Below are positions 6,247-43,216 of a stretch of 64,000 bases of DNA, piece after piece (within the stretch, counting starts at the first letter, position 1; every line of letters starts with the position of its first letter). The stretch lies in the NCBI GenBank assembly GCA_029258795.1, contig JAPDKB010000002.1, positions 96,001 to 160,000 on the forward strand, read 5' to 3'. This stretch comes from an archaeon (GTDB lineage: Archaea; EX4484-52; WAPT01). The position numbers and the translations under genes are program-made. Below the pieces are notes generated by a model that did not search any database, was not told the DNA's origin, and worked only from the letters and a program-made list of their open reading frames with translations.

Positions 6247-6675
6247 ATGATGGCAAGGAAAGGTATATCTCCATTGATAGCGGTAGTGTTGCTCGTGGTC
6301 TTTACAGTGGGTATTAGTGTAGTGATATCCAGCTGGCTGAGCAGCTATGCCAAGCAAACCACAGAACAGGCAGGACAGGGCACACAGCAGGCCATAGAGT
6401 GTGCAAAAGCTGTGGTTGACATAACCGATGCAACGAACAACGGCGTGTTTGTGGCAAATGTGGGTGCTACAGACATAACGGTTACGAGATTATACCTCTA
6501 CGACGATAACAACAATATCTGTTCGCAGGATGTGAATCAGAACCTCCAGATAGGAGAAGAAGTGTACATCAACTATAACTTCACAGGATGTCCTGCAGGC
6601 TTTAACAGCGCAGCACTAACAAAGGTCAGAGCAGTGACGAACTGCCCAGGAGTAACAGATGAATACACTTACTAA
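6247..6675 (+). CDS. Archaeal type IV pilin (class III signal peptide)
   Basis: RKG|ISPLIAVVLLVVFTVGISVVISSW; stand-alone gene with own TATA and T-rich terminator. Confidence 0.9.
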   Translation: MMARKGISPLIAVVLLVVFTVGISVVISSWLSSYAKQTTEQAGQGTQQAIECAKAVVDITDATNNGVFVANVGATDITVTRLYLYDDNNNICSQDVNQNLQIGEEVYINYNFTGCPAGFNSAALTKVRAVTNCPGVTDEYTY

Positions 6676-28213: not shown

Positions 28214-29287
28214 TTGGAGTATTATACTCACTATATGATAGTTACAGATGATGCGAAAGTATTGAAAGTTGAGGGGCACCAGCGGCATGGATATTTGATC
28301 GTTGGTGCTAAAATTTCTCCCGATATGAAGAAATACTTGGAAACGAAAGGAGAGGCAGGATACAAACCGGCTGTCAGCTTCTCTTTAAGAAGCAAGCTGG
28401 CCAGATGCGGTGCTGATGCTCGGCTATCGGGGTGGGAAATTCATGAGGACCTTCTCATGGGCAAACTGGAATATATCAATAGGGGATTGCCAATTGAATA
28501 TCGTCCGGGAGATGAGATAGGGAGGTTCTTCGGATACCATCAGAAGGAAGCTTTGAGAGGGCAAGAACTGTATGATATGGTACGTAAATGGACTCCGCAA
28601 GAGAGTGTCAGAATGAATCCTGAGGAATGGAACGAGTTTAGGGATTCCACAATAGCGCTGGAACTCCAACCCTACAAGGTATATGAGGTTAGGAAATCAA
28701 AAGAACCAGTGAGAGCACCATATATAATCGATAGCAACGAGCTTTATCTGAAGATTAAGGAAGTAACGCCAGAAGAGGTCGTTGAGGAGCTGCCTTTCGA
28801 ATCAAAAGAGCGGATGTTATCGCAGATGATGGAGGATAAGTCCCTTAAGGACACACTGTTCTGGGAGTGGCTTGCCATACAGCTATCCAAGAATGGCTTC
28901 TGTGTTGTGGAAAGCGTGGCTGAGATCGAGATTCCCGAAGGACATTATGGTCTGATACCAAGAAGGACTTCACTCTGGGGCAGCACCAATCAAGCATCTT
29001 CAGTCATAGTTGATCCTGCTCCCAAGTTTCAGGGCAAGCTACTCTATGAGATCGTTTCGGGCACGCCGGGAGAGCATCTCTCTCCAAAACGCTACGGATA
29101 CCTGCGCATCTATCCAGATACGCTCTCCCACACAGAAGAGCGCTACAGACCGGAAAAGCCGGAGAAGATGGAAACAAGGAGGGAAAGGAAGGAGAGAATG
29201 ACGACCATCTCCACAGGCGTGGCAGCATGTCCATGGCGTGGAAGATGTGAGGAGGAATCAGTTGAGGAAATTCTGGGAATGATATAG
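28214..29287 (+). CDS. Divergent two-domain dCTP deaminase/dUTPase-fold protein
   Basis: LRSKLARCG in the N-terminal half; GFCVVESVAEIEIPEGHYG and IVDPAPKFQGKLLYEI in the C-terminal half. Confidence 0.55.
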   Translation: MEYYTHYMIVTDDAKVLKVEGHQRHGYLIVGAKISPDMKKYLETKGEAGYKPAVSFSLRSKLARCGADARLSGWEIHEDLLMGKLEYINRGLPIEYRPGDEIGRFFGYHQKEALRGQELYDMVRKWTPQESVRMNPEEWNEFRDSTIALELQPYKVYEVRKSKEPVRAPYIIDSNELYLKIKEVTPEEVVEELPFESKERMLSQMMEDKSLKDTLFWEWLAIQLSKNGFCVVESVAEIEIPEGHYGLIPRRTSLWGSTNQASSVIVDPAPKFQGKLLYEIVSGTPGEHLSPKRYGYLRIYPDTLSHTEERYRPEKPEKMETRRERKERMTTISTGVAACPWRGRCEEESVEEILGMI

Positions 29288-29331
29288 CTTATGATTATGT
29301 TTTATACTTTTTCTCATCCAAAAATTCTCAC

Positions 29332-30342
29332 ATGGTTGATGATGGAGGCATCATTATTAAGGAAGAGGTGTTCGAGGAAGCTTATATACCATCCCGAATG
29401 CTTCACCGGGAGGGGCAAATTCGGGAAGTGGCGAGATGTCTTGAGCCGGTGGTGGAAGGAAGAAGAGCGCTCAACCTGTTTCTTTATGGTCCGCCGGGCA
29501 CGGGTAAAACCACCCTTGTGAAATACATGTTCGATGATCTCTCATCAAGAAGCATGAAGTTCAAGCCGATCTACATAAACTGCTGGGAGCGCAACAGCAA
29601 GCATGCTGTAGCATCGGCATTGCTGAGCAGCGTTGACCCTCTGGCTCCACTCAAGAGAACTCCGGCTGAATTGCTTGAGGACTTTCTCGGGAGTGTGGAG
29701 AGAAAGGAGTACAACGTTGTTGTGTGTCTGGACGAGGTGGACAGAATGGAGGATAAGGACATGCTCTATGATCTCTCTCGAGCCGGGATAGGGCTTGTGC
29801 TCGTCTCCAACGATCCCTACGCGCTCGTTGACCTTGACCCGCGCATAAAGAGCTCCCTCTTTCTCAACTTCGTGGAATTCCCGAAGTACAGGCCGGACGA
29901 GCTCGTTGACATTCTTAAGGACAGGGCTGAAATCGGACTGAGACCGGGAGCCATAGAGCCCCATTTGCTGCGGGTCATAGCTGTGAGTGCTGAAGGGGAT
30001 GCACGGGTTGCCATAGCCACGCTGAGGAACGCTGCCAAGCTTGCTGAAAGCAGAGGAGCAAGCAAGATAGAAAAGGATGATGTGATGCAGTCCGTTAAGG
30101 CAGCCAGAAAGCTCAAGGTGCAGCAGATATTAAGCACGCTGAATGAAGAAATGCGGCTCCTTTATTCAATTGTGGAGGAGCACGGCGAGATAAGCTCAGC
30201 GGAGCTTTACCAGATTTACAGGGAGCGCAGCAAGAAGCCGGTGGCTGAGAGAACCTACCGAAATTACATGGACAGGCTGGTTGAGCTGAAGCTTGTGAAA
30301 GCTGAGGGAGATGTGAGGTGGAGGAGGTATAAGGTAGTGTGA
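29332..30342 (+). CDS. cdc6: Orc1/Cdc6 replication initiator
   Basis: YIPSRMLHRE, GPPGTGKT, YINC, LDEVD, GDARVAI, C-terminal wHTH. Confidence 0.93.
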   Translation: MVDDGGIIIKEEVFEEAYIPSRMLHREGQIREVARCLEPVVEGRRALNLFLYGPPGTGKTTLVKYMFDDLSSRSMKFKPIYINCWERNSKHAVASALLSSVDPLAPLKRTPAELLEDFLGSVERKEYNVVVCLDEVDRMEDKDMLYDLSRAGIGLVLVSNDPYALVDLDPRIKSSLFLNFVEFPKYRPDELVDILKDRAEIGLRPGAIEPHLLRVIAVSAEGDARVAIATLRNAAKLAESRGASKIEKDDVMQSVKAARKLKVQQILSTLNEEMRLLYSIVEEHGEISSAELYQIYRERSKKPVAERTYRNYMDRLVELKLVKAEGDVRWRRYKVV

Positions 30343-30356
30343 GAATAGGAACAACT

Positions 30357-30800
30357 TCAAGTCAATCCATACTCTTTTAGAAAGGTCTTGATTTCCTCCT
30401 CCCTCTTCATCAAATTCTCCACCGGCAGAAACAGCGGCTCCAGCTTTTCTATTTCCTCCCAGCTTTTCCACTCCCATCCCTCACATTTCTCTGGCTCCAT
30501 GACTTTTGGCTCACCACTTTTCCATCTTGCGATCATCCAGACGGTTATGTAGTGCTTACCCTCCTTCTCAAACACGTCGTTGGTGGCTGTCAGAAACCTG
30601 ATGTCAGCGATCTCTACTCCAGCTTCCTCTCTAACCTCTCTTCTCGCACATTCCTCAAAACTCTCTCCAAATTCCAAATGCCCTCCGGGCGTGTGCCACG
30701 TGCCATGGCCATGGCTTGTGGATTTCCTTTTACCAATCAAGAGCTTTCCGTCCTTAACGACTATAACCGCAACACCAACTCTTGGCCTGTCTCCTGACAT
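30357..30800 (-). CDS. Nudix hydrolase (NUDT15/MutT-like)
   Basis: PGGHLEFGESFEECARREVREEAG Nudix box; EPEKCEGWEW. Confidence 0.92.
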   Translation of the reverse strand: MSGDRPRVGVAVIVVKDGKLLIGKRKSTSHGHGTWHTPGGHLEFGESFEECARREVREEAGVEIADIRFLTATNDVFEKEGKHYITVWMIARWKSGEPKVMEPEKCEGWEWKSWEEIEKLEPLFLPVENLMKREEEIKTFLKEYGLT

Positions 30801-30867
30801 TAATTCTGACTGGAAACTCAAAAGTTAAATGTTTAAAAAGCCCACCGAACTTCTAGGAGGTGGTGTC

Positions 30868-31095
30868 ATGGAAAATGAAAAAATCCTCGAAGCGCTGAAG
30901 GATCTGATCTGGATAAATGCGGTCATAGCCACCGAAATAATCCGGGTGGTGGAGAACACGAAAGCTGCTCTTGGTTCTGATGTGCCAGCAAGCTGTAAAG
31001 ATGAGCACAGGCAGATACTCCAGAAGGTTATAGAGCTGGCGGAGAAATGGAGGAAAGAAGATATTTTGAGGGAGCACAATCTCAAACATCCTTGA
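30868..31095 (+). CDS. Small helical hypothetical protein
   Basis: SD GGAGGTGG before ATG 30868; TATA-like TTTAAAAA upstream. Confidence 0.65.
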   Translation: MENEKILEALKDLIWINAVIATEIIRVVENTKAALGSDVPASCKDEHRQILQKVIELAEKWRKEDILREHNLKHP

Positions 31096-31101
31096 TCCGA
31101 G

Positions 31102-31389
31102 CTATTTAAGCACTTCCCTCACCACATCAACAAAATCCTGTACGGAAGCGCCCACAACAACAACATCCGTAGAAGAGAACCACTTTTCAACAGCTTTTCC
31201 GACCTCGCTTACGTTCACCCCTTTGAGAAAGTTCTCCAGCTCCACTATTTTCTCTTCAGGATGCATGAAGAAATCTCCGGTTATCCTGATATCCTCGATC
31301 TTGTCGTCATCAACAACAACCCTAACCCTTATTAGTTTACCTCCAGCAACCTTTTTCTCAGCTCTTTTTTCTACCTCCAAAAGTTCCAC
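31102..31389 (-). CDS. lplB: Lipoate-protein ligase accessory (C-terminal) subunit LplB
   Basis: KVAGGKLIRV, ITGDFFMHPEE; overlaps the lplA stop. Confidence 0.88.
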   Translation of the reverse strand: MELLEVEKRAEKKVAGGKLIRVRVVVDDDKIEDIRITGDFFMHPEEKIVELENFLKGVNVSEVGKAVEKWFSSTDVVVVGASVQDFVDVVREVLK

Positions 31390-32156
31390 CCCCGTGTTGA
31401 GTACTTTTCGTTATAGAGCTTCTCAGCAAGCTCCAGCTCGTAAGGAGTGAGCTTTCCATCCACGAACCTGACTCCAAGCACATCTTCAAACGATTCTCTC
31501 ATCAAGCTTGAAAATTCATCGAAGGACGGCACGTAGCCCAACTGCTCTTTTACCGTGGTCACCACCCTTTTAAGATCATCCACAACCTTGTCCTTAAGCT
31601 TTTCCCTGCTTATTTTCAGCACGTTGAGCATCGTATCAACATCGAAATCCAGCAGAATGGTGCCGTGCTGAAACACCACACCTTTCTTGCGGGTTTGTGC
31701 GTTGCCCGAGATTTTTCTGCCCGCAACCACCACATCGTTCACGGGCCTGAACGAAGCATCCATACCCAGCTTTTTGAGCGCATCGATTATCGGCTGACAC
31801 AACACCCCGTATGATGTAACGATATCCCTCAGCTCGGGCATGAAGTTCTCCGGAATAATGATCGAATAGTTCAGCTCGCCTTCCGGATACTTGTACACGG
31901 CTCCACCCCCCGTCATCCTTCTGAAGATTCTTATGCTGTGCTGCACACAGTACTCCACATTCACCTCCTCCTCCACACTCTGAAAGAATCCGATTGCTAC
32001 AGCCCTTTCCGGCCACGGATGAATGTAGAGGGAAGGCATGCTTTTGCCTTCGGCAACAGCAATCATCACAGCTTCATCTACAGCCATCTGATGGTACGAA
32101 TCCTTTATTTCCGGCAGCTCCACAAATCTGAAGGACGGCAAAGCCATACACATCAC
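31371..32156 (-). CDS. lplA: Lipoate-protein ligase A, catalytic subunit
   Basis: MAVDEA, RRMTGGGAVY, NDVVVAGRKISGNAQ, QHGTIL. Confidence 0.93.
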   Translation of the reverse strand: MMCMALPSFRFVELPEIKDSYHQMAVDEAVMIAVAEGKSMPSLYIHPWPERAVAIGFFQSVEEEVNVEYCVQHSIRIFRRMTGGGAVYKYPEGELNYSIIIPENFMPELRDIVTSYGVLCQPIIDALKKLGMDASFRPVNDVVVAGRKISGNAQTRKKGVVFQHGTILLDFDVDTMLNVLKISREKLKDKVVDDLKRVVTTVKEQLGYVPSFDEFSSLMRESFEDVLGVRFVDGKLTPYELELAEKLYNEKYSTRGWNFWR

Positions 32157-33484
32157 TTCAGTTCAAGCTTCTTTCTGCATGCCATTGCAAGTTTTTCCAC
32201 TATGTGGAACACGTCCGAAACGAGCGGGTGGTAGTTGAACATGTACTCCTCCACATCGTAAACGCTGGCTCTGTTTCTTATCATCACACTAGCAAGATTC
32301 AGCAGTTCCGGAATGACCATGCTTCTTCCCGCTGCCTGTAGGCCGAGAAGCTTACCATCTTTACCAGAGCACACGAGCTTTACCACCTCCCTACCCTTAC
32401 CGCGTGTCGTTGAACTTACCACATAATCGAAATGTGCTCTGGCATCTTTCTCCGTGAGACCGCACCCACCAAAATAAAACCCGTCAAGCACGCTTATCCA
32501 GTTCTCCAAGAAGCCCGCATATTTCACGCTTTTCTCTCCACCGATTATTCTTGCAAGCATCATGGCTTGTTTTGCTGCAGATGGTGCAAATTTTGAGAGC
32601 GCACGTTTGCCAGTGAGAAAATGCGTAACCTCGGCACAGTCCCCGCATGCGTAAACAGAAGGGATATTCGTGCGGAACTTATCATCAACAATTATCCCCA
32701 CATCACATTCTATACCCGCCTTTCTAACCATTTCCAGATCGGGAACGAAGCCGGTGCAGTTAACTGCAAAATCAACCTTCAGCTTCTTCCCTCCTTCAAG
32801 CAAGACACTCCCATCCTTTATCCCCAGAACCCTCACACCCGTTACGACCTCCACACCCCCTCTAACCTTTTCTTCCACAACTTCCGCAATATTACTATCG
32901 AGCAAAGCGGGCAATATCGTGGGCTGAGCTTCAACCATCACAACTTTCAGTCCCCTCTTCTTCAGAGCCTCGCTCACCTCAAGTCCGATGAGACCGCTCC
33001 CAATGATTGCAACACTCTCGCTGTTACCAGCAAGTTCAATGATCCTGTCCGCATCCCTGACATTCTGAAGTTTGGTTAGAGGAACGGAACCATCGTGCTG
33101 GAGCTTTATCTTCGGCTTGGTGGCTCCGACACAGAGACAAAGAACGTCGTAACCTATTTCTCTATTCTTGCCATCGCTTTCTTCCGTTTCCACCTTAACG
33201 ATCTTCTCCCCAACGTCTATTTCTCTCAACTTCGATCCCAGCGCAACCTCAATTCCCTTCGAATTTATATCCTCCACTCCAAATCTGAAGAGATCTTTTC
33301 TGCTAACCTCTCCGGCTATATAATACGGAAGAAGGCAGGGCGAAAAGCCTATCTCATTACGCTCATTCACCAGCGTAACCTCAAACTTTCCCCGCTTGGC
33401 AAGCTCCAGAGCAAGGGTTATCCCCGCAACACCCGCGCCAATAACCACAACCCTTTTCCTGCTGAAGTTATCATCCCTTCGCAT
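32153..33484 (-). CDS. FAD-dependent pyridine nucleotide oxidoreductase (NADH oxidase / CoA-disulfide reductase type, single Cys)
   Basis: GAGVAG, FSPCLLPY, GSGLIGLE, YACGDC; ATG 33484 overlaps the upstream gene. Confidence 0.9.
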   Translation of the reverse strand: MRRDDNFSRKRVVVIGAGVAGITLALELAKRGKFEVTLVNERNEIGFSPCLLPYYIAGEVSRKDLFRFGVEDINSKGIEVALGSKLREIDVGEKIVKVETEESDGKNREIGYDVLCLCVGATKPKIKLQHDGSVPLTKLQNVRDADRIIELAGNSESVAIIGSGLIGLEVSEALKKRGLKVVMVEAQPTILPALLDSNIAEVVEEKVRGGVEVVTGVRVLGIKDGSVLLEGGKKLKVDFAVNCTGFVPDLEMVRKAGIECDVGIIVDDKFRTNIPSVYACGDCAEVTHFLTGKRALSKFAPSAAKQAMMLARIIGGEKSVKYAGFLENWISVLDGFYFGGCGLTEKDARAHFDYVVSSTTRGKGREVVKLVCSGKDGKLLGLQAAGRSMVIPELLNLASVMIRNRASVYDVEEYMFNYHPLVSDVFHIVEKLAMACRKKLELK

Positions 33485-33839
33485 AATTTCCTTTCCCCTC
33501 GAATTCATTGAGCGCTTCCATGACATGCTGCAAGTACATCAGCGCTGGACCACCGCCCATCAACACGGCAACCCATGCCGCCTCCAGAATCTCTGCTCTC
33601 GTTGCACCGGCGTCCATTGCGTTCTTAACGTGCAGAACTATGCACGACTTGCACTGCGATTTCACGGCAAGCGCTACGGATATGAGTTCCTTCACCTTTT
33701 TTGAAAGTACGCCATCCTTCTCGCACACCTCCAGCAAATTCTGAAATGCTTCCCAGTGCTCAGCGTTTTCTTTCCCTATCAATCCGATGTTTCTGATAAT
33801 CTTTCTCATGAGATCTTCATACTCTCCCATTGCAACCAC
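33471..33839 (-). CDS. AhpD / carboxymuconolactone decarboxylase family protein
   Basis: LSKKVKELISVALAVKSQCKSCIVLH (CxxC plus His), GATRAEILEA, MGGGPA. Confidence 0.92.
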   Translation of the reverse strand: MVAMGEYEDLMRKIIRNIGLIGKENAEHWEAFQNLLEVCEKDGVLSKKVKELISVALAVKSQCKSCIVLHVKNAMDAGATRAEILEAAWVAVLMGGGPALMYLQHVMEALNEFEGKGNYAKG

Positions 33840-33852
33840 CTCAATTCGATAC

Positions 33853-34251
33853 TCACCCTTCAGCGAGCATTCTTCTTTTTTCTTCCGCAGTATGAAGCGC
33901 TTTCAGCTCCCCCTCATTCTCAAGCTTAACCTTCATTATCCAGCTTCCATATGGATCGTGGTTTATGCGCGAGGGCTCGTCAAACAGCTCCTCATTGACA
34001 TCAACTATCTCTCCGCTTACAGGGCTTGAAATATGCCCGCTCCACTTTATCGCTTCAAGCGAAACGTACACATCACCTTTTTTTATCCTTTTTCCTTTTT
34101 CCGGCAGTTTTACGAACACAAACTCATCAACTTTTTTCACCGCCGGCTCAATTAATCCGACGCTAACAACACCATCTTTCTCAACCTTCACCCACGAGTA
34201 CTCATCATCGTAGAGCAGGTCTTCGGGCAGGTTGAACTCTCCGCTCATCAC
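33853..34251 (-). CDS. GcvH-like lipoyl-carrier protein
   Basis: LEAIKWSGHISSPVSGEIVDVN (lipoyl Lys), INHDPYGSW. Confidence 0.9.
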   Translation of the reverse strand: MMSGEFNLPEDLLYDDEYSWVKVEKDGVVSVGLIEPAVKKVDEFVFVKLPEKGKRIKKGDVYVSLEAIKWSGHISSPVSGEIVDVNEELFDEPSRINHDPYGSWIMKVKLENEGELKALHTAEEKRRMLAEG

Positions 34252-35834
34252 GACTCACCCTTTCTTTTCATTTTCATGCTCTCTTTTTTATTTTTACTTG
34301 CACCGCCACTCTTTTCTTTATTTTTCTCTCTATCTTTGCTTTCCTTTTCCTGTCCTTTCACAATACCCAGCTTGAGAGACACGAGAGCGATGATAAGAGC
34401 AAGCCCTATCGCTCCAAGGAGAATAGCTACAGAGGTCAGCACGTTAGTGAGCAAGTTTGGATTGATGAGCAGCACCAGACCCAGAGCGAGCATCATCATG
34501 CCTGAAATGAGTTTCAACACTCTTCCCTGAAATTCGGTGAGCTTTCTCGCCCCCAAGGTCAGTGTGAAAGCAATCACGATCATCGCAAGAGGAATGACAT
34601 AGACAATGTTGTAAAGCACGAGGTAAGCATAATAATGGAGTGTGGGTAGCTCTCTTAGAGTGAGGATTCTTGTGAAGAGCATGGGGAAACCGGCTGTGCA
34701 CAGCAGCTCGTAGGTGTTTGCTGAAACCGCGAGCACGATTGTTCCCGCAAGCATGGCGGGCAAGGATTCAGATTTGAGGAGTTGTCTCATCCTTTTGAAG
34801 AGCTTTGGCTTTGCGCTCTCCGGAATGGTGAGCGAAACACCCTTCTTAAACGCAAAGAAGTCCTTTATGTTGATGAGAGCCATGACGACAGCCACCAATC
34901 CAGCTATCGTGGTGATGAAGGACACGCTGCCAGCTATCAGGAAAAAGTTGAGCCAAGCAGCCATGAAAAGGAAGTATATAAATCCGGAAAAGAAGACAAA
35001 AACACCACCTATCAGCAGCATTCTTTTGCGGGAGTTGGCATAGATGAGCATGCTCAGCAGGAAAAATAGCACGAAGAACGCACACGGGTTTATGCTGTCC
35101 AGCGCGCCCAATATGATCGTTATTAGCACCAAGCTTGAGGTTTGGGGGTTAAGGGAGGAAAGAAGAGGGACTTTGTTGAACTCGTTCCTGAGCTGGGAAA
35201 ACGGCGCTGAAATATTTGTACTTACATTTTCTTCCGTGCTTGGTGTACTCCACTCCTGCTCTTTCGCGATTTTTCCCGTTTCCTCATATTTTTTCAACAC
35301 CTCAAGTGGTGAGGGGCAGCCGTTTTTCAGACAAGAGACAATCATGCTTTCAATCTTGGTTCCTGTGGTGGAATCATCTCCGTATCCCACAACAGGATCG
35401 AACGTGCCTATGAATGTTGTGGGCACGCCCATGGCCTTCGTGCCATAAGCGACGGCCATTTTTTGAAAAAGAACAGCATTCGTTCGGTTATACCATACCT
35501 CCATATAATGTACTTTAAGGTAGGGCGCGTATTTTTCTTCAAGCTTCTGCAGGAATGGCTTCTCTTTTGCACAGTGCGGACAGCCATTACCCCAGAAGAA
35601 ATACACTTCTATGTAATGAAAAGATTGTGAGGTGGGTGAAGCTGTTGTGGTTGCGTGTTCGTTCTGCTCTGCTTTTGTAGGAATCTTCAAGGTGCAGGTT
35701 GTGGAGGAGGAAGTTGAAACGGAACATGTAGCTGCGGTGGGCTGAATAGAATGGCTGAATCCCAAGCTTGCACTCGCTATGAACACCAGAACGATTAAAG
35801 AGAGTATTGCCGGCAGAGAGATTTTGGTCTGCAT
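34248..35834 (-). CDS. Extracytoplasmic thioredoxin domain fused to CcdA/DsbD-type TM domain
   Basis: Signal peptide, Ser/Thr linker, FWGNGCPHC, cis-Pro GVPT, TM domain with DSINPC and ELLCT. Confidence 0.85.
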   Translation of the reverse strand: MQTKISLPAILSLIVLVFIASASLGFSHSIQPTAATCSVSTSSSTTCTLKIPTKAEQNEHATTTASPTSQSFHYIEVYFFWGNGCPHCAKEKPFLQKLEEKYAPYLKVHYMEVWYNRTNAVLFQKMAVAYGTKAMGVPTTFIGTFDPVVGYGDDSTTGTKIESMIVSCLKNGCPSPLEVLKKYEETGKIAKEQEWSTPSTEENVSTNISAPFSQLRNEFNKVPLLSSLNPQTSSLVLITIILGALDSINPCAFFVLFFLLSMLIYANSRKRMLLIGGVFVFFSGFIYFLFMAAWLNFFLIAGSVSFITTIAGLVAVVMALINIKDFFAFKKGVSLTIPESAKPKLFKRMRQLLKSESLPAMLAGTIVLAVSANTYELLCTAGFPMLFTRILTLRELPTLHYYAYLVLYNIVYVIPLAMIVIAFTLTLGARKLTEFQGRVLKLISGMMMLALGLVLLINPNLLTNVLTSVAILLGAIGLALIIALVSLKLGIVKGQEKESKDREKNKEKSGGASKNKKESMKMKRKGES

Positions 35835-35904
35835 ATATCAACACTACCACTGAAACCTTATAAATATCTTGGTTTCAAAATCGGAAACCTTTTAATGATT
35901 TGAG

Positions 35905-36906
35905 ATGATATTTGCAGAAATGTACGAACCAAGGCTTGATGAGATTCTCGAATTGCTGAAGAAAAATGTGAATCATGGCAGCAGGGTGTTTCTGCAGCTT
36001 CCGGAAGGACTGAAGAAAAAAGCACAGATAATAGTAGAGGGAATTGAAAAGAAAGGTTATGAAGTGGTTGTGGACATAGAACCGTGTTTTGGAGCTTGCG
36101 ATGTTCCTGTGGCAAGAGCTAAGGTGGAGGGTTGCGATGTTGTTCTTCATCTGGGGCACACGCCCATTCTGGAGCTTGATTCTCAGATAAAAGAAATGCA
36201 CGGCATTAAGGTGGTATACTATCCCGTCCATGCTATAGTGGACTTAACACCTCTGCTTGAGAGGGCTGCGGGTCTTTTGGAGAGAGGGTCAAAAGTTAGT
36301 GTAGCGACAACCATCCAGTTCCACCACGTGCTGGAAAGCATAACCGAAGAGCTTAAAAAGCAAGGTTTCACGCCCTTGATAGGAAAGAGTGCGAGAACCG
36401 GTCTGGAAGGCGTGGTTCTGGGCTGTGATTATGCCGCGATGAAGAAGATGGATGGGGAAGTAATGTCACACCTTTTCATTGCGGGAGGAGAGTTCCATGT
36501 AAAGGGTGCGATTAGAGAGGTGAACAAGTCAATTGTACACATTAATCCTGAGAGAAATGAAGTCAAGTTGATTGGAAAGGAAGAGAGGGAAAAGATCATG
36601 AGAAGGGAAATGTTGCTAGTGGAGAAGTTCAAGGAAGCGGAAAAGATAGGCATATTGACCTCCACCAAGCTCGGGCAGAGGTTCGGAGATCCATTTAAGG
36701 TTAAGAGGGCTGTGGAGAAGCTGGGCAAAAAATGCTTCGTCCTGAGTGGAGATTTGATCAGCAGAGAGAAGCTGGAAGGTTTGGATGTTGATTTTTATAT
36801 AATACTGGCTTGTCCGCGTCTGGAAGAAGATACCACCATATTCAGTGCTCCTGCCATCGCATGGGGCACTCTAGTTAAACATTTAAAGATTACAGGTATT
36901 GATTAA
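35905..36906 (+). CDS. dph2: Diphthamide biosynthesis enzyme Dph2
   Basis: LQLPEGLK, CFGACD, VLGCD, ACPR (three Fe-S ligands). Confidence 0.92.
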   Translation: MIFAEMYEPRLDEILELLKKNVNHGSRVFLQLPEGLKKKAQIIVEGIEKKGYEVVVDIEPCFGACDVPVARAKVEGCDVVLHLGHTPILELDSQIKEMHGIKVVYYPVHAIVDLTPLLERAAGLLERGSKVSVATTIQFHHVLESITEELKKQGFTPLIGKSARTGLEGVVLGCDYAAMKKMDGEVMSHLFIAGGEFHVKGAIREVNKSIVHINPERNEVKLIGKEEREKIMRREMLLVEKFKEAEKIGILTSTKLGQRFGDPFKVKRAVEKLGKKCFVLSGDLISREKLEGLDVDFYIILACPRLEEDTTIFSAPAIAWGTLVKHLKITGID

Positions 36907-36931
36907 ATGTTCAAATCCACGGGGTGAAATC

Positions 36932-37207
36932 ATGGAGATAAACGTGAAGAAGGAGAAGGACGGCACACTCATCGTGGAGGTGAAAGGTGTTGATGCTTAT
37001 CTTCCCAACCTTCTCAGACAGGAGCTGTGGAATGATGATGGAGTAACCTTTGCGGCTTTTGATAAGGATCACCCTTACATAGGAACACCGAAACTCATCG
37101 TGAGGGGAAAGAACCCGGAGAAATCCCTGATGGATGCCATTGAAAGACTTAAAAACATGTTCAAACAGCTGGAAGATTCGTTTAAATCTTCCTTTCAATC
37201 TCAGTAA
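36932..37207 (+). CDS. rpoL: RNA polymerase subunit Rpo11 (RpoL)
   Basis: NLLRQELW, FAAFDKDHP, PKLIV; SD GGGGTGA. Confidence 0.88.
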   Translation: MEINVKKEKDGTLIVEVKGVDAYLPNLLRQELWNDDGVTFAAFDKDHPYIGTPKLIVRGKNPEKSLMDAIERLKNMFKQLEDSFKSSFQSQ

Positions 37208-37319
37208 ATTTCGTTTATCGACGAAATATTATTTGTGCATTTAGATAACATTTAAAAAGTTTTTTATACTAATAGGAGCTCCACGTGAAAATTTTCTTGT
37301 GAATTGATAAAAGCTAGCG

Positions 37320-37817
37320 GTGATTATGTCCATGGAAGCACAAACCCGTATAAATCACAAAAGGAGATTCAGGATACCTGAAAAGCTGGAAGACCTGTTC
37401 TATTTATTGCTGGGAATGTTCATAGCATTCCTTATATACCACTTGATGGCATTTGCTCTGCATACTTCCGATCCAATAGTTTCGGTGGTATCATGCTCCA
37501 TGTTGCCAACACTGGATAGAGGAGACTTGCTCGTTGTTAAGGGCGTTACTTTTGAAGAGATAGTGGCGGGAAGAAAAAACGGCACCATCATAGTTTACCG
37601 CCATCCTGTGGATGGCAGGCTTATAGTTCACAGAGTATACGAGAAATTACCTGATGGGACGCTGCGAACATGGGGAGACAACAATCCCGTTCCCGACCCA
37701 TGGGTTGTACCAATCGAAAATGTGGTTGGTAAGGTTATGTATAGGATACCGTATTTGGGATATCCTAAAATAATCCTGTCGGAGCTTGTGGGAGCTACCC
37801 CTTCCATCTCATGCTGA
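37320..37817 (+). CDS. Signal peptidase I (Sec11 type)
   Basis: TM anchor, VVSCSMLPTL (Ser), RGDL, IVHRV (His), GDNN..D. Confidence 0.92.
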   Translation: MIMSMEAQTRINHKRRFRIPEKLEDLFYLLLGMFIAFLIYHLMAFALHTSDPIVSVVSCSMLPTLDRGDLLVVKGVTFEEIVAGRKNGTIIVYRHPVDGRLIVHRVYEKLPDGTLRTWGDNNPVPDPWVVPIENVVGKVMYRIPYLGYPKIILSELVGATPSISC

Positions 37818-38188
37818 ACGTTAATCTCAAGACCCGGGGGTGGTGCAGTATCAAACTGTGTAAGAAGTGTGGTAGTTTAATGCAGCCAATAAAGAAGGAT
37901 GGAAAAGTTATACTGGTGTGTATGAGGTGTGGTAGGAAAGAGAAGATGACCTCTAATGATAACTTCAAGATAACTGAAAGGATAGAGCATGATGCTGCTA
38001 GGGATAGCATTCCTGTGGTGGATGAGGAAAATGAGGTTAAACAATTACCCACAACCACAATCGAATGTCCAAAATGCGGACATAACGAGGCAGAATGGTG
38101 GACGATGCAAACCAGAAGCAGTGATGAACCGGAAACAAGGTTCTACAGATGCACAAAATGCAAGCATACATGGAGAGAATACAGCTGA
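37811..38188 (+). CDS. tfs: Transcription factor S (TFS/RpoM)
   Basis: Two Zn ribbons; QTRSSDEPETRFYRC acidic hairpin; true start uncertain (see findings). Confidence 0.93.
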   Translation: MLNVNLKTRGWCSIKLCKKCGSLMQPIKKDGKVILVCMRCGRKEKMTSNDNFKITERIEHDAARDSIPVVDEENEVKQLPTTTIECPKCGHNEAEWWTMQTRSSDEPETRFYRCTKCKHTWREYS

Positions 38189-38550: not shown

Positions 38551-39978
38551 ATGATGACAAAAGTACAGCCTCTTCGGGAATTCATTCAGGATGTTCGGGC
38601 AGGAAATGTTGATGAGGAGGAGTTCCTGCACAGCGTTATGGAAGCTTGTAGCAAGCTTGATGAGGAGTATGAGCCGTTCATAACTCTCAGGAATGTAGAA
38701 GAGGTGTTAGAGGAAGGTAGAGGTTTGCTAAAAACTAAAGGAAAGATGCCTCTCGTACCCTTCAGCGTGAAGGACAATATATGTACCGCTGGTGTTAGAA
38801 CCACCGCCGGTAGCAAAATATTGCACGACTACATTCCGTTTTTCGATGCCACCTGCGTTAAAGCTCTCAAGGATGAAGGTGCTGTTCTGATAGGCAAAAC
38901 CGCCACAGACGAGTTCGGATTTGGCACTTTCTGCACCAACTGCGCTTTTTGCACACCTAAAAATCCGCACGACAAGAGCAGGGTTTGTGGCGGTTCTTCC
39001 GGAGGAGCTGCATGTATAACAGCATTGGCGTCATTTCCGCACGTTGCAATCGCTGAAAGTACCGGCGGTTCTATAGCGTGTCCCGCAAGTTTCTGTGGAG
39101 TGTTCGGTTTCACCCCCACTTATGGTGTTGTGAGCAGGTACGGGCTGGTGGATTACGCTAACTCACTGGATAAAATAGGTCTGATGGCGAAATATATTGA
39201 TGACATCATGCTCGCATTTGAGTTCATATCCCGCAGGGATGAGCGTGATTCCACATGCGTTGGACTTGATAAGGAAGATCACGACATAACTCTTGAGAGG
39301 ATTACACTCGGGATTCCGAAAGAGTTTGTGGAAGCTGTAACGGATGAGAAAGTGCTGAAGACCTTCCAGAGCTTTGTGAAGAAGCTTGAGGGAAACGGCG
39401 TCAACATCGTTCAGGTGAGCATTCCATCCGTGAAATACGCTCTTGCAGCTTACTACATAGTTGCAACGGCTGAAGCTTCCACCAATCTAGCGAAGTTCTG
39501 CGGGATGAGGTACGGCTATGAGAAGAATCCGGAGGGAAAGCATTACAACGAGTATTTCAGCGAGGTGAGAAGCGAAGGTTTTGGGGAGGAGGCAAAACGA
39601 AGAATCCTCTTGGGTACATTTGCAAGGATGGCCGGTTACAGAGATGCTTACTACCTGAGAGCCTTGAAGGTCAGAACACTTGTGATCAGAGAGTTTGAGA
39701 AAGCTCTGAAGAATGCGGACTTTTTGCTGGCTCCAACTATGCCTGTACTTCCTCCACGTTTTGAAGATGTGAAGGAGATGAGCCCTGCCGAAGTTTACGC
39801 CATGGATGTGCTCACCGTGCCCGCCAACTTTGCTGGCTTACCTCACATTTCCCTGCCGTGCGGAAGCGTCGCTGGACTTCCGGTTGGGGTGCAGCTGATG
39901 GGCAGGCACTTTTCCGACTGGAAAATGCTTTCTCTGGCAAAAATAATGGAGGAAGCTGAACTCACGCATTCCTTCTGA
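38551..39978 (+). CDS. gatA: Asp/Glu-tRNA amidotransferase subunit A
   Basis: SVKDN, GGSSGG, STGGSI, RSEGFGEEAKRRILLGT. Confidence 0.95.
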   Translation: MMTKVQPLREFIQDVRAGNVDEEEFLHSVMEACSKLDEEYEPFITLRNVEEVLEEGRGLLKTKGKMPLVPFSVKDNICTAGVRTTAGSKILHDYIPFFDATCVKALKDEGAVLIGKTATDEFGFGTFCTNCAFCTPKNPHDKSRVCGGSSGGAACITALASFPHVAIAESTGGSIACPASFCGVFGFTPTYGVVSRYGLVDYANSLDKIGLMAKYIDDIMLAFEFISRRDERDSTCVGLDKEDHDITLERITLGIPKEFVEAVTDEKVLKTFQSFVKKLEGNGVNIVQVSIPSVKYALAAYYIVATAEASTNLAKFCGMRYGYEKNPEGKHYNEYFSEVRSEGFGEEAKRRILLGTFARMAGYRDAYYLRALKVRTLVIREFEKALKNADFLLAPTMPVLPPRFEDVKEMSPAEVYAMDVLTVPANFAGLPHISLPCGSVAGLPVGVQLMGRHFSDWKMLSLAKIMEEAELTHSF

Positions 39979-42900
39979 GCAGGAGTATAAGTGTGGACAT
40001 GACCATCACAGCCATGAGTTGTACGAGCTCTATTCCCGGAGCTTGTGTTTCTGCTCCTTCTGCAACCAGCTCCTTAAAGTTTAGAGTTACGTCTGCAACT
40101 TGTTTTTGAGATGTGCTCCAGCTGGTTGCAGTGATTTTTAAAATACACGATGGTTTGGTTGGATCGTAGACTGGCGTATAGACCTTGACAGGAATCCTCG
40201 TGATTTTGCCTGGAGGAATTGTGAAGCTCGTCTCTTTCTCGTATGGTGTGCCTTCATAACCAGCAAACCACGCTCTCACAAACTTGGAGCATCCTGAAGT
40301 ATTCAGTTTGAGGTCTATTAACTCATTAAATGTGTTGGGGTTTTTTATAGTAACAACGAGCCTCTTTTCAACACCTACTGTAATGTCTAGATTAGATGTT
40401 ACTATAAGTGAAGCCGACTTCGGCACGGAAGCGGATTCTACGCATTTAGACCTCACACAGCTTCCTGTTGCACAATCGCTTGATGTGCTGCATTTACAAT
40501 CTTTATCAGCCTGAACTTTGATGTCAAGGGCAGTGTAGTTCTTGTTGCCTGCTTTGTCCCATGCAACAATATAATATTCTTTGGTTTCTGAAGTACATCT
40601 ATCTAACGATATTTTACATACCTTGTCCTTGTCTACCTGATACTTCCATTCACAAATCACCTGATCGCAGTTGGGTGTAGGACACACTCTTATAATATCG
40701 ACCCCGCTCTTCCCGACGGTCGGCGATGTCTCATTATCATAGACATCCTCCACATTTGGATATTTGAAGGTGATGACCCACACTCTACTCACATCATCAA
40801 ATGTGAGGTTGTATGCTGTTTCAGGGCTGTGAATCACCGGAGGAAGCACATCCGGCAGGAAGAGCGACTCTCCCTTATAAGTATTTGCTTCACACACATA
40901 GCCCTGCCCGTTCTCGTCAAATACCAGTGTACCCTGATGTACTTGCTTAACGAGAGGCACACCGGTAGCTATCTCCACATTTTCATCACCATCAGGAGCA
41001 CTTTCGCACTTCCAGACAGTATGGAACCCTTTATAACCTGAAGCCGCACTTGCATTGCATGCGTAACGTCCGGCAGGTAGTTCTGCAGCAAGGCTATCTG
41101 GTGTGTCATCACCTATCTTTTCAATTTCATGCGATACCCAATGCTCACCATCCTTACATGAGCGATACACTGGAATGGGTTGCTTAGATTCGATATGACC
41201 CAGTGCACTATCGAGACCCTTTGAGTTATAAAGCTTTTTCGCATCTTCAGCCAAAAAATTATTCGCTGGTCCAAAACCACAGAGAGCAACCTCGTAATAG
41301 TTTCCAGTTTTACCGTTCACTTCAAGTGTTACGGGATTCATCAAACATTCCTCCCAGTTATATATGCATGCTGCAAGCACAGCAGGATCGAGACCTGCGA
41401 GCTCACCATAATTCCAATTTATGTTTGCCATCTGTTTCACGTCGCAGGTAGTATTTATGGTCAATGTCAGATTAACCATATCTATATTTAACGAACAATC
41501 ATACCCTACCGTTATGTTAACATGTATAGATGCGTCACTTCCATACTCTATTTTGTACTTATCTGGCACGCAGGTAAATTTTGGAGTATCACAACCTGCA
41601 GGTTCCACGTTGAATGCTTCCAGAACTTCCGTGGTGGATGGTTTGGGCATATCGCTACTCAGCACTTCTTCAAGATCGTCTGAACTCTTAATTGAAGTAT
41701 AAAACTCCGATGCATTTTCAAAGCCATACTTTGTTACATCAACATTAGAAAGCTTTACTTCGATATCTTCTCTTTCTAGAACATCCGTAAGTTCTCCTCT
41801 AAAAACGACATCGTCTAGTTTTTCACTACAAATTTGGTCAGAGTAGAAAGCAAAATCTGCAACCGTTTCCAAAACGCTTAAAGTATCTTCCTTATTGGCA
41901 TTATAAGCGTCAACAAGATCTGACGCGTCGCATATTTCCATCCCGTTAATTTTTGGTATGTCGAAAACAGAGAGGATTACATTTGTTTTCCTTTGTCTGG
42001 TTGATGTGCCAGATAGTTGTTGAGGAGTCACTTGTTCATTCACACCGATTAAGAAGTCCTGAGAATAAAACACTCTATTATATCCATCTCCCACGACCAA
42101 TCCCGGACCGGTAGTCACGGATACGCTACCCCACCCACCGTCTGGTTCCGGTGCTGTGAGGCTCTTACGAGCCACAACATTTTCTATACCCTGTCTTAAT
42201 CTCTTTCTGAAAGCCCACGCCCTGTAAGCATCAACTTTCCAGCTTAAATTATAGTACTTTTTGAACACTTTCTGCGTGTCTGGAATTTTCAGTCCAAGCA
42301 TAGGATGGGATAAAGTTACACTTAAGTTTTTGTGTCTAGCGTAAATTCCAGTGAGAATGCTTTCAACTCCACCGCTCTCATTTACAAGGCTCACTTTTAC
42401 TCTCATCATAGGAATCCTGTTCTGACACGCCTGTATGAAAGCGTTAAAAGTAACATTGACAGTCTCGTTGGTGAGTGGCCATCCCGGAATCAAGGAGTCC
42501 ACACCACCCGGATTAAATTCAAACGTCAGCTCCGGATGCTTGGTAATACCACGCATTAACAGCCAGTAACCAAAAGTAGCACATCCTTTACAGTAATTAA
42601 ACTCATTGTTATATTCCCAGGGTTCTATCCACGCTTCTGGACTGTCACATGTGGGGTTACTATCGACTATACACATAAATTTGTTCGAGCTCGAAGCAAA
42701 TTGTTGTGTTGTGGTTGTTGCACTAGAACTAGATGAGGATGACGCAGATGCTGTATTATCTATGACTTCCCACACATCACATGTTGGGGGGTTGGCGCAC
42801 TTAACCTCTGCCCATTCAGCACAAGTCGGCGGATCTGCACAGCCGCTTACAGGTTTCCCGCTCCCGTCCGTGACATTTAATAATTTACCCTCCTGCCCTT

Positions 42901-43213
42901 CTACCCATTTCCAATTAGTTACGTAGGTGCCACCATGCCAGTCGCGCCTCTCATAACTCCAACACAGATAGCCATTACATTTAATACACAATCTTAGTGT
43001 GCCCTCACTGGTAGTGCCGGCAGTAGAATAAAGTGCGTTTTCAGGACAGATTCTGGCATCTGAACAGTCCCTGGTGTCTATTACGTTAACTAAGCTACAT
43101 AGAGATTGAGGGTTTTGCTTAACACATTTATCTGCAAAAACCTGCGAGACGAGGTGTGTATACATTATACCTGCAATCAACATTGTTAAAATAAAGACTC
43201 TTATCTTTCTCAT
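39962..43213 (-). CDS. Large Cys-rich secreted surface protein with C-terminal PG-motif/TM/basic tail
   Basis: 1083 aa; signal peptide, many Cys, Ser/Thr linker, AWDKAGN Ig-like motif, ends APGIELVQLMAVMVMSTLILLLRRNA. Confidence 0.75.
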   Translation of the reverse strand: MRKIRVFILTMLIAGIMYTHLVSQVFADKCVKQNPQSLCSLVNVIDTRDCSDARICPENALYSTAGTTSEGTLRLCIKCNGYLCWSYERRDWHGGTYVTNWKWVEGQEGKLLNVTDGSGKPVSGCADPPTCAEWAEVKCANPPTCDVWEVIDNTASASSSSSSSATTTTQQFASSSNKFMCIVDSNPTCDSPEAWIEPWEYNNEFNYCKGCATFGYWLLMRGITKHPELTFEFNPGGVDSLIPGWPLTNETVNVTFNAFIQACQNRIPMMRVKVSLVNESGGVESILTGIYARHKNLSVTLSHPMLGLKIPDTQKVFKKYYNLSWKVDAYRAWAFRKRLRQGIENVVARKSLTAPEPDGGWGSVSVTTGPGLVVGDGYNRVFYSQDFLIGVNEQVTPQQLSGTSTRQRKTNVILSVFDIPKINGMEICDASDLVDAYNANKEDTLSVLETVADFAFYSDQICSEKLDDVVFRGELTDVLEREDIEVKLSNVDVTKYGFENASEFYTSIKSSDDLEEVLSSDMPKPSTTEVLEAFNVEPAGCDTPKFTCVPDKYKIEYGSDASIHVNITVGYDCSLNIDMVNLTLTINTTCDVKQMANINWNYGELAGLDPAVLAACIYNWEECLMNPVTLEVNGKTGNYYEVALCGFGPANNFLAEDAKKLYNSKGLDSALGHIESKQPIPVYRSCKDGEHWVSHEIEKIGDDTPDSLAAELPAGRYACNASAASGYKGFHTVWKCESAPDGDENVEIATGVPLVKQVHQGTLVFDENGQGYVCEANTYKGESLFLPDVLPPVIHSPETAYNLTFDDVSRVWVITFKYPNVEDVYDNETSPTVGKSGVDIIRVCPTPNCDQVICEWKYQVDKDKVCKISLDRCTSETKEYYIVAWDKAGNKNYTALDIKVQADKDCKCSTSSDCATGSCVRSKCVESASVPKSASLIVTSNLDITVGVEKRLVVTIKNPNTFNELIDLKLNTSGCSKFVRAWFAGYEGTPYEKETSFTIPPGKITRIPVKVYTPVYDPTKPSCILKITATSWSTSQKQVADVTLNFKELVAEGAETQAPGIELVQLMAVMVMSTLILLLRRNA

Positions 43214-43216
43214 CTC

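Follow-up and report, generated by a model that had tools for sequence, protein, structure and literature searches.

The window, i.e. the whole stretch of 64,000 nucleotides (nt) analysed here (positions 96,001 to 160,000 of contig JAPDKB010000002.1, assembly GCA_029258795.1, from an archaeon of the lineage EX4484-52; WAPT01), carries at 31102-35834 a block of six minus-strand open reading frames (ORFs) encoding a lipoyl-carrier H protein, a lipoate ligase and several redox proteins. The first gene (34248-35834) encodes a protein of 528 amino acids (aa) with a thioredoxin (Trx)-fold domain and a membrane domain, hereafter called TrxTM, and is followed by the genes for the GcvH-like H protein (33853-34251, 132 aa), a CMD/AhpD-like protein (33471-33839, 122 aa), a flavoprotein (32153-33526, 457 aa, or 443 aa from an internal ATG at 33484) and the ligase subunits LplA (31371-32156, 261 aa) and LplB (31102-31389, 95 aa). 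The genes are tightly packed, with overlaps of 4 nt at the TrxTM/GcvH and flavoprotein/LplA junctions and of 19 nt at LplA/LplB, a gap of 13 nt between GcvH and AhpD, and an AhpD/flavoprotein overlap of 14 nt from the ATG at 33484, or of 56 nt with the longest ORF. The ORF list of the window thus agrees, in positions and junctions, with a first reading of the sequence (the original prediction), whose family identities all hold by Pfam and NCBIfam, the CcdA/DsbD label of the membrane domain being weaker than the others. Upstream, a spacer of 70 nt leads to a divergent gene for Dph2 (diphthamide synthesis; from 35905, plus strand), and the sole TATA-like box in this spacer, TTTATAA (35858-35864, minus strand, read from the sequence), precedes the operon's first ATG by 23 nt. 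As archaeal TATA boxes are located ~26 nt before the transcription start, TTTATAA fits a putative archaeal promoter with a very short leader. Downstream, the operon faces a convergent 88-aa ORF (30829-31095, plus strand), which has no family match. The join of the operon is no assembly artefact: run X1, from which this DNA may stem, has a contig of 23.8 kb covering 28500-36159, and run X2, which belongs to an independent study and whose sequence is ~2% divergent, has contigs across 30283-32386 and 35051-38000. No RNA run is listed as containing the operon.

TrxTM consists of an N-terminal membrane anchor, a Ser/Thr-rich linker, an extracytoplasmic Trx-fold domain, a seven-helix membrane domain and a Lys-rich tail. 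The Trx-fold domain contains the motif GCPHC and a conserved pair, C168/C173, and gives weak Thioredoxin_2 and glutaredoxin-type matches in Pfam; its best solved sequence match is 1fo5, likewise with C-P-H-C, which we take to be a low-potential archaeal redoxin. The membrane domain (34335-35162, minus strand), for which there is no Pfam model, belongs to a very large family: more than 6417 clusters reach E<=0.001 in a set of 8000 candidates, and identity between archaeal members and those of bacteria such as Nitrospirota is 63-72%. The best 120 homologues share 61-73% identity with the domain of the window and come from Aenigmatarchaeota, Altiarchaeota and Nanoarchaeia, but also from Nitrospirota and Thermodesulfovibrionales, and none of them has a Pfam call on the membrane part. 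Some family members are fused to VKOR (P0032) or DSBA (P0050), or contain a second, C-x-Q-C Trx-like domain. In an alignment of 20 sequences D246, N249-P250-C251 and Y375-E-L-L-C379-T-A-G-F-P384 are invariant, and C251 and C379 are still invariant in an alignment of 33 sequences that includes distant members.

The relationship of this domain to DsbD and CcdA is based on paralogs and on the two Cys residues. The phylum of the window contains weaker paralogs of the membrane domain (24-45% identity), two of which (L111 and L112) score 35.1 and 31.3 bits with the Pfam model DsbD_TM, above its cut-off of 27.1, and hit the domain of the window at ~1e-15 in BLASTP and ~1e-18 in the genome search; other paralogs give sub-threshold SfLAP or DsbD_2 matches. 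Additionally, in a protein-language-model search the nearest named Atlas cluster is the cytochrome c biogenesis transmembrane domain (score 0.91), which is composed of 56% SfLAP and 33% DsbD_TM. An AF2 model of the membrane domain based on 33 sequences (predicted local distance difference test, pLDDT, 86.6) predicts seven helices with breaks at both Cys, while a single-sequence model of the whole 528-aa protein reached a pLDDT of 47.6 and was set aside. Searching the Protein Data Bank with a profile of whole TrxTM yields Trx and glutaredoxin folds alone and no CcdA, and Foldseek with the membrane-domain model returns nothing at E<=0.001. The best TM-score in Foldseek belongs to CcdA 5vkv (0.36/0.42; rank 11, probability 0.66, E 0.59), whose Z in VIA-align is 6.4 (194 residues aligned, root-mean-square deviation 4.7, rank 24), values that are in the noise range of helical bundles and that are outranked in VIA-align by amino-acid transporters with Z ~8. 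Thus, of the CcdA/DsbD label in the original prediction, the two conserved Cys and the paralog link to DsbD_TM stand, whereas neither a direct Pfam match nor a sequence match to a solved CcdA was obtained, and we accept the membrane domain as a probable, divergent member of the DsbD/CcdA superfamily, via transitive homology and motif, rather than as a demonstrated CcdA. Like DsbD, CcdA and ScsB, TrxTM has two membrane Cys, located on helices 1 and 4, which are predicted to be kinked (NPC and C-x4-P), a membrane domain that starts N-out after the external domain, and a fused external Trx-fold CxxC domain. Unlike these proteins, whose known donor is Trx, it has a membrane domain with seven helices, no Pfam match and a fold match to 5vkv at noise level, and its gene is translationally coupled to that of a lipoyl protein.

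The H protein has no signal peptide and matches GCV_H at 1e-35 (Pfam), scoring above the cut-off of PRK01202 (127.5 bits, cut-off 117) and below that of TIGR00527 (104 bits, cut-off 115.85). The Lys in its motif S-L-E-A-I-K-W-S-G-H aligns with the lipoyl-Lys region of the solved GcvH 3a8i, and solved GcvH has K-A-A-S-D at the site of K-W-S-G-H. The clade of this protein is small (63 clusters at E<=1e-20 in a set of 5.8 billion proteins), and 59 of the 63 clusters have K-W-(S/T)-G-H at the lipoyl-Lys position. The ligase is of the bipartite archaeal type with separate catalytic and C-terminal-domain subunits: LplA contains LplA-B_cat (3e-49) and the motif G-R-K-I-S-G-N-A and remains below the cut-off of LplA_large NF053750 (228.6 bits, cut-off 480), and LplB matches Lip_prot_lig_C (3e-08) and is above the cut-off of NF053749 (72.4 bits, cut-off 65). 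The assembly of the window (1.17 Mb, 23 contigs, 96.3% complete) contains no match to GcvP (PF02347) or GcvT (PF01571), models that as controls matched in 10 and 11 of 14 genomes, no match to the E2 catalytic domain and no lipoyl/biotinyl domain other than this GcvH. The lack of GcvP, GcvT and 2-oxoacid dehydrogenase genes, originally noted for the window, therefore extends to the whole genome, and because there is neither GcvP, GcvT or E2 nor a second lipoyl domain, this is a genuine orphan H protein, and a single target is left for the ligase in this genome. LipA was not found in the assembly, not even with the LipA genes of related clusters as queries, so that lipoate must come from outside, confirming the predicted scavenging.

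An H protein next to a ligase might also pass on or store lipoyl groups, as in Bacillus and Staphylococcus, or the operon might be a remnant of glycine cleavage. GcvH proteins do act as lipoyl relays, in S. aureus GcvH-L serves as a lipoate buffer during oxidative stress (PMC12440151), and members of the clade are named 'glycine cleavage system protein GcvH' by NCBI. However, the genome offers no other lipoyl acceptor and no P, T or E2 protein, SirTM and macrodomain are absent from the six genes, and the clade profile matches GcvH-L 5a35 at 1.5e-4 vs 1e-32 for canonical GcvH, which makes this reading extremely improbable. Compared with the GcvH-L/LplA2/SirTM/macrodomain operon of Staphylococcus and Streptococcus (PMC12440151), the operon shares an H-type carrier with a dedicated salvage ligase, and the GcvH-L operon is linked to oxidative stress; it differs by having no SirTM or macrodomain in the six genes or the flanks, no E2 targets, and only a distant resemblance to 5a35. 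From the glycine cleavage system itself the H protein with its lipoyl-Lys is present, and P, T and class-I L protein were not found in the genome.

The AhpD-like protein is a cytoplasmic protein with a single CMD domain (7e-18 in Pfam; ahpD_dom 48 bits, cut-off 27.8) and the motif E-x11-C-K-S-C-x3-H. Its best solved relative is 5dik, annotated as 'alkyl hydroperoxide reductase AhpD' (1e-21), with the CxxC aligned. The flavoprotein contains Pyr_redox_2 (9e-54), Pyr_redox and Pyr_redox_dim, i.e. parts for FAD, NAD(P)H and dimerisation. Its nearest models are those of coenzyme A (CoA)-disulfide reductase (CoADR), TIGR03385 being matched with 228 bits, far below the cut-off of 578.8, and its score against TIGR01350 is 114.6 (cut-off 408.8). 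Best solved relatives are the NADH oxidase NoxA-3 6pfz (1.5e-42), CoADR 3icr and CoA-persulfide reductase 8a56, and the single active-site Cys in G-F-S-P-C-L-L-P-Y-Y aligns with S-F-A-N-C-G-L-P-Y-Y of 3icr. By its sequence the flavoprotein is thus of the CoADR/NADH oxidase/persulfide reductase type and no lipoamide dehydrogenase. Among six Pyr_redox_2 matches in the genome there is no canonical Lpd with CxxxxC; only the cluster flavoprotein and a thioredoxin reductase (TrxR) are strong matches, and the remaining ones resemble geranylgeranyl-reductase or TrkA-type ORFs as judged by the N-terminus. In the window, the flavoprotein is the sole candidate for an NAD(P)H input besides TrxR.

There is precedent for lipoylated proteins as electron donors: AhpD, Ohr and OsmC are reduced by them according to PMC8945050, which also refers to the mycobacterial NADH peroxidase chain of Lpd, DlaT (SucB), AhpD and AhpC (Bryk et al. 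2002), and a GcvH-like protein has been proposed as OsmC donor in a preprint (bioRxiv 10.64898/2026.10.01.755906). As in the mycobacterial chain, the operon combines an AhpD-type CxxC protein having E-x11-CxxC-x3-H with a lipoyl carrier and an NAD(P)H flavoprotein. Unlike in that chain, the carrier is an orphan H protein and no E2, the flavoprotein is a single-Cys CoADR/NADH oxidase-type protein and no Lpd, AhpD resembles 5dik in consisting of one CMD domain (122 aa), the carrier is constantly paired with a membrane Trx protein, and AhpC is absent from the genome. In fact, no peroxiredoxin above the cut-off was found in the assembly, where PF00578 is matched solely, and below its cut-off, by a thioredoxin ORF, and OsmC/Ohr (PF02566) has no match. 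Of the predicted AhpD peroxide chain the AhpD with its relay motif remains, but not the AhpC or OsmC that it would serve, so that AhpD would have to act itself. The Trichomonas L-protein/H-protein/OsmC system (Nyvltova et al. 2016) and Hyphomicrobium GcvH_1-OsmC, both as presented in bioRxiv 10.64898/2026.10.01.755906, resemble the arrangement proposed here in that a GcvH-like carrier without P and T is the dithiol donor and a thiol peroxidase the acceptor; they differ in that the archaeal genome has no OsmC/Ohr and no L protein, and has AhpD instead, plus a dedicated ligase and a membrane partner.

The pairing of TrxTM with GcvH is conserved. In a GcvH search with one genome per species, nine full-length relatives (54-68% identity) were found in DPANN-type metagenome-assembled genomes (Aenigmatarchaeota, Undinarchaeota, Nanobdellota, Woesearchaeota and others), and in all nine the TrxTM gene is located directly upstream, with two further hits not being evaluable (L020, a contig end, and L021, a 34-residue bacterial match). 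Among 301 genomes of the phylum to which one of these loci (L012) belongs, searched with the GcvH clade profile, 11 have a match, and TrxTM is upstream of 9/9 strong ones (E<=1e-55) and of neither of the two weak ones (36-38% identity); this sample added L121, L122, L123, L125 and L127. A search of metagenomes with the membrane domain, evaluated for the best 80 of 551 loci, yielded the order TrxTM-GcvH-AhpD-LplA in L061, L068 and L090, an order that also occurs in L122, as well as TrxTM-GcvH-LipA in L080 and a GcvH of 31% identity upstream in L027. Altogether the TrxTM-GcvH pair is present at 19 distinct loci including the window, the 18 others being mostly from DPANN archaea, so that the predicted conservation of the cluster in other genomes is borne out and the arrangement is not due to chance. 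LplA is found in the available flank of 14 of the 19 loci, and the other five stop at the contig edge first. Five loci contain AhpD (the window, L061, L068, L090 and L122), and its motif is retained in L061, L068 and L090. Thus, ligase, H protein and TrxTM are the constant parts of the cluster, and AhpD, flavoprotein and sulfur-transfer genes are variable. GcvH always adjoins the membrane gene, but AhpD is absent from 14 of the 18 related loci, and the step from AhpD to the CcdA-type domain contained in the original prediction is not supported. GcvP was found in none of five genomes of cluster-bearing relatives, whose completeness is not given. In most relatives, a DUF7343 winged-helix gene (~170 aa; e.g. 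L011:3763-4296, L017:3627-4127, L090:657-1166, and in L121-L127) lies directly upstream of TrxTM in either orientation, and its product is likely a dedicated regulator. It is missing from the window, the sole DUF7343 homologue of the genome being far away (C2:75509-75985).

A second type of cluster (L011, L013-L016, L121, L125 and L127; e.g. L011:6396-12392) continues after GcvH with a lipoprotein that copies the external Trx domain, then with DGC or DUF169, with TusA and a thiosulfate transporter of the TsuA/YeeE type, with DsrE and DsrH, and finally with a true LipA, a 150-aa protein without family and LplA/B, which suggests that in these loci the same lipoyl carrier may serve sulfur trafficking. 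Equivalence to AhpD was considered for the Trx-like gene of ~150 aa found right after GcvH in seven of the nine genome loci, but rejected: its product duplicates the external Trx domain and bears a lipoprotein-type signal (…SGC), which makes it extracytoplasmic, whereas AhpD is devoid of a signal. Likewise, the radical SAM genes of the relatives are not LipS1/S2, as they score 346-351 bits against the LipA equivalog (cut-off 310) and 34-39 against LipS2.

The operon of the window could accordingly be read as a sulfane-sulfur or persulfide module, in which lipoyl-H and the flavoprotein would reduce persulfides, polysulfides or thiosulfate-derived sulfur and TrxTM would act on external sulfur species. 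This would explain the sulfur genes at most of the related loci and has a precedent in LbpA and sHdr, where a lipoyl carrier functions in sulfur metabolism (PMC6067878); moreover, the flavoprotein has CoA-persulfide reductase 8a56 among its best solved relatives, and DNA of the window occurs in hydrothermal-vent metagenome runs. Yet the slot after GcvH is occupied by AhpD here and not by a sulfur transferase, and neither TsuA/YeeE, DsrE, DsrH, DGC, DUF169 nor LipA was detected in the genome by tblastn, which gave just a weak TusA-like match far from the operon, nor is there a match to the CCG/HdrB domain (PF02754), so that we regard such a function as rather improbable for this genome. Similar to sHdr-LbpA sulfur oxidation with its sLpl(AB) ligases (PMC6067878; PMC10332631), the operon has a GcvH-like carrier that comes with its own ligase and is not part of glycine cleavage, and the related DPANN loci carry TusA and DsrE-type genes. 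In contrast to that system, CCG domain and LipS1/S2 are absent, the copy in the window has no sulfur transferases, and the relatives use a true LipA.

In the reading that we tentatively favour, which falls somewhat short of an even chance, the operon is a self-contained thiol redox module based on protein-bound lipoate, which feeds AhpD and the membrane protein. The electron-transfer steps and their direction, which we infer from sequence and context, would be as follows. LplA and LplB would load scavenged lipoate onto the only lipoyl acceptor of the genome, the H protein of the K-W-S-G-H clade, and the NAD(P)H flavoprotein would keep the lipoyl arm reduced, possibly via a mixed disulfide between its Cys and the lipoyl group. 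Dihydrolipoyl-H could then donate electrons to the cytoplasmic AhpD-like CxxC protein, which would itself reduce hydroperoxides or disulfides, and to the C251/C379 pair of the DsbD-superfamily membrane domain. From there, electrons would pass to the external CPHC Trx domain of the same protein, allowing the reduction or isomerisation of surface disulfides. The membrane Cys pair would thus be the fixed client of the lipoyl arm, and AhpD, as in the window, or sulfur transferases, as in most relatives, would be optional clients. All catalytic residues are present, i.e. the lipoyl Lys, E-x11-CxxC-x3-H of AhpD, the CoADR-type Cys, GRKISGNA of the ligase, and NPC and LLCTAGFP of the membrane domain. 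A complex prediction for the membrane domain and the H protein, run without controls, gave ipSAE values of 0.01 and 0.03 (mark 0.32), which count neither for nor against an interaction.

Midpoint potentials are ~-0.32 V for NADH, ~-0.29 V for lipoamide and ~-0.25 V for the membrane pair of DsbD, an order that allows electron flow from NADH via the lipoyl group and the membrane pair to the external Trx domain and disfavours the reverse. Reverse flow would correspond to disulfide formation without quinones, with electrons passing from external thiols via CPHC, the membrane Cys and lipoyl-H to the flavoprotein (NAD+/O2) or to AhpD and peroxide. CPHC is the active-site motif of DsbA, the fusions with VKOR and DSBA mentioned above occur within the family, a secreted-looking 1084-aa ORF with 41 Cys lies 4 kb away, and to our knowledge DPANN archaea are generally devoid of the quinones for DsbB or VKOR, all of which would suit an oxidising pathway. 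However, lipoamide is a poor oxidant compared with a DsbA-type disulfide (~-0.12 V), so that the reaction would be strongly uphill; furthermore, 1fo5, presumably of low potential as said above, also has C-P-H-C, and we know DsbD-family proteins solely as importers of reductant. Disulfide formation by this route is hence very improbable.

Several observations weigh against the module feeding TrxTM from the lipoyl arm. Trx and TrxR are the usual donors of DsbD and CcdA, and the genome encodes both a TrxR (308 aa, C-A-T-C) and two thioredoxins, from which it follows that, contrary to the original suggestion, the operon is no substitute for a missing Trx system. We know of no lipoyl-protein reduction by flavoproteins of the CoADR/NADH oxidase class, and the flavoprotein is present at just six of the 19 loci (the window, L012, L017, L018, L019 and L125). 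The membrane domain has no Pfam match even at E<=10, leaving its DsbD label transitive, and CPHC is also the motif of the oxidising DsbA. Additionally, a GcvH-type gene lies beside the membrane domain in five of the 80 metagenome loci, with none in the available flank, in many cases a short one, of the other 75, so that most members of the family use another donor; in long loci, the neighbours of unlinked members include peroxiredoxin, MsrA, cytochromes c, ArsP, Suf and Hsp20. When 16 GcvH-linked and 32 unlinked membrane domains are compared, one position discriminates between them (Tyr265 vs His, at the cytoplasmic end of helix 1), and this near-identity argues against a re-tooled docking surface on the linked proteins. 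The linked members cluster in a maximum-likelihood tree, though not in one clade, with 4 changes vs a mean of 13.5 after shuffling and 0/500 shuffles as low, a clustering that relatedness alone can yield, and the domain of the window groups with unlinked members, with weak support (84/85).

These points leave room for a cytoplasmic peroxide-defence module, in which electrons would run from NADH via flavoprotein, lipoyl-H and AhpD to a hydroperoxide, as in a minimal form of the systems of mycobacteria and Trichomonas, and TrxTM would be a co-regulated stress protein fed by TrxR and Trx, or, as a variant, the flavoprotein would simply be an O2-consuming NADH oxidase. The presence of TrxR and two thioredoxins, the 75 metagenome loci without GcvH and with varied neighbours, and the near absence of residues specific for GcvH-linked membrane domains would all be in line with it, and so would the rubrerythrin or Hsp20 genes adjoining two of the AhpD-type copies and the NADH oxidases among the best solved relatives of the flavoprotein. 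Such a module predicts a conserved GcvH-AhpD pair, yet the conserved pair is GcvH-TrxTM: GcvH overlaps or almost touches the membrane gene at the 14 related loci lacking AhpD and at the 13 lacking the flavoprotein, and each of the nine strong GcvH-clade matches in the phylum sample has the membrane gene upstream. Both variants together are therefore unlikely, although they are the most serious competitor of the lipoyl-fed TrxTM module.

More generally, it is conceivable, if on balance doubtful, that in some DPANN archaea a lipoylated H protein replaces Trx as the cytoplasmic donor of a DsbD-superfamily protein and also feeds AhpD or sulfur transferases. In the literature library that was searched, no paper links GcvH or lipoyl ligases with DsbD or CcdA, in agreement with the original view that the combination is not a described system; that an orphan clade of H proteins is strictly coupled, in DPANN archaea, to a Trx-membrane protein of the DsbD superfamily is thus apparently undescribed. 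MdrA, an AhpD-like disulfide reductase of Methanosarcina, is reportedly encoded next to a DsbD homologue, but the library yielded no paper on it and it does not enter the evidence here. Lipoate is known from five enzyme complexes and a few moonlighting carriers, i.e. the donors of AhpD, Ohr and OsmC, LbpA with sHdr, and GcvH-L. If the lipoyl-fed module is correct, protein-bound dihydrolipoate would drive thiol-disulfide reactions at the outer side of the membrane, which would be a new physiological role of lipoate and a new electron donor for transmembrane thiol transport by DsbD/CcdA-type proteins. It would also explain why host-dependent archaea of minimal metabolism keep lipoate ligases and would give a function to a membrane family of more than 6400 clusters from archaea and bacteria, whose membrane domain is without a Pfam model. 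The idea lends itself to direct testing, as each component is either small and soluble or amenable to reconstitution.

Within the phylum of the window GcvH is found in one of 42 genomes, which is this genome, and two genomes of the same genus (90% and 94% complete) contain neither GcvH nor the membrane gene. At the syntenic site in these genomes (L116, G041:C13; L117, G040:C3) Orc1/Cdc6 and Dph2 are ~400-500 bp apart, whereas in the window 5.5 kb between the two genes (30357-35834) accommodate a Nudix gene, the 88-aa ORF and the six genes. Because the same-genus genomes lack the block at this site, it is probably an accessory module gained by this lineage. The notion of a lineage-wide adaptation is not compatible with its absence from the 41 other genomes of the phylum that were searched, including the two of the same genus. 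The GC content of the block (0.46-0.50) shows no contrast to the flanks, i.e. there is no compositional sign of recent transfer.

The 1084-aa ORF in the neighbourhood of the operon (39965-43216, minus strand) has a signal-like N-terminus and a Cys content of 3.8%, and its product might be among the clients of an external thiol-disulfide system. The TrxR gene, located elsewhere in the genome (L003:1492-3137, G000:C4), overlaps by 4 nt with a downstream 240-aa ORF, which looks like a candidate NAD kinase by sequence. Finally, two small plus-strand ORFs of the window, 6-464 and 6247-6672, begin with MMRKGLTPIIAMVLLL and MMARKGISPLIAVVLLV, respectively, which we take to resemble signals of the archaeal type IV pilin/archaellin type.

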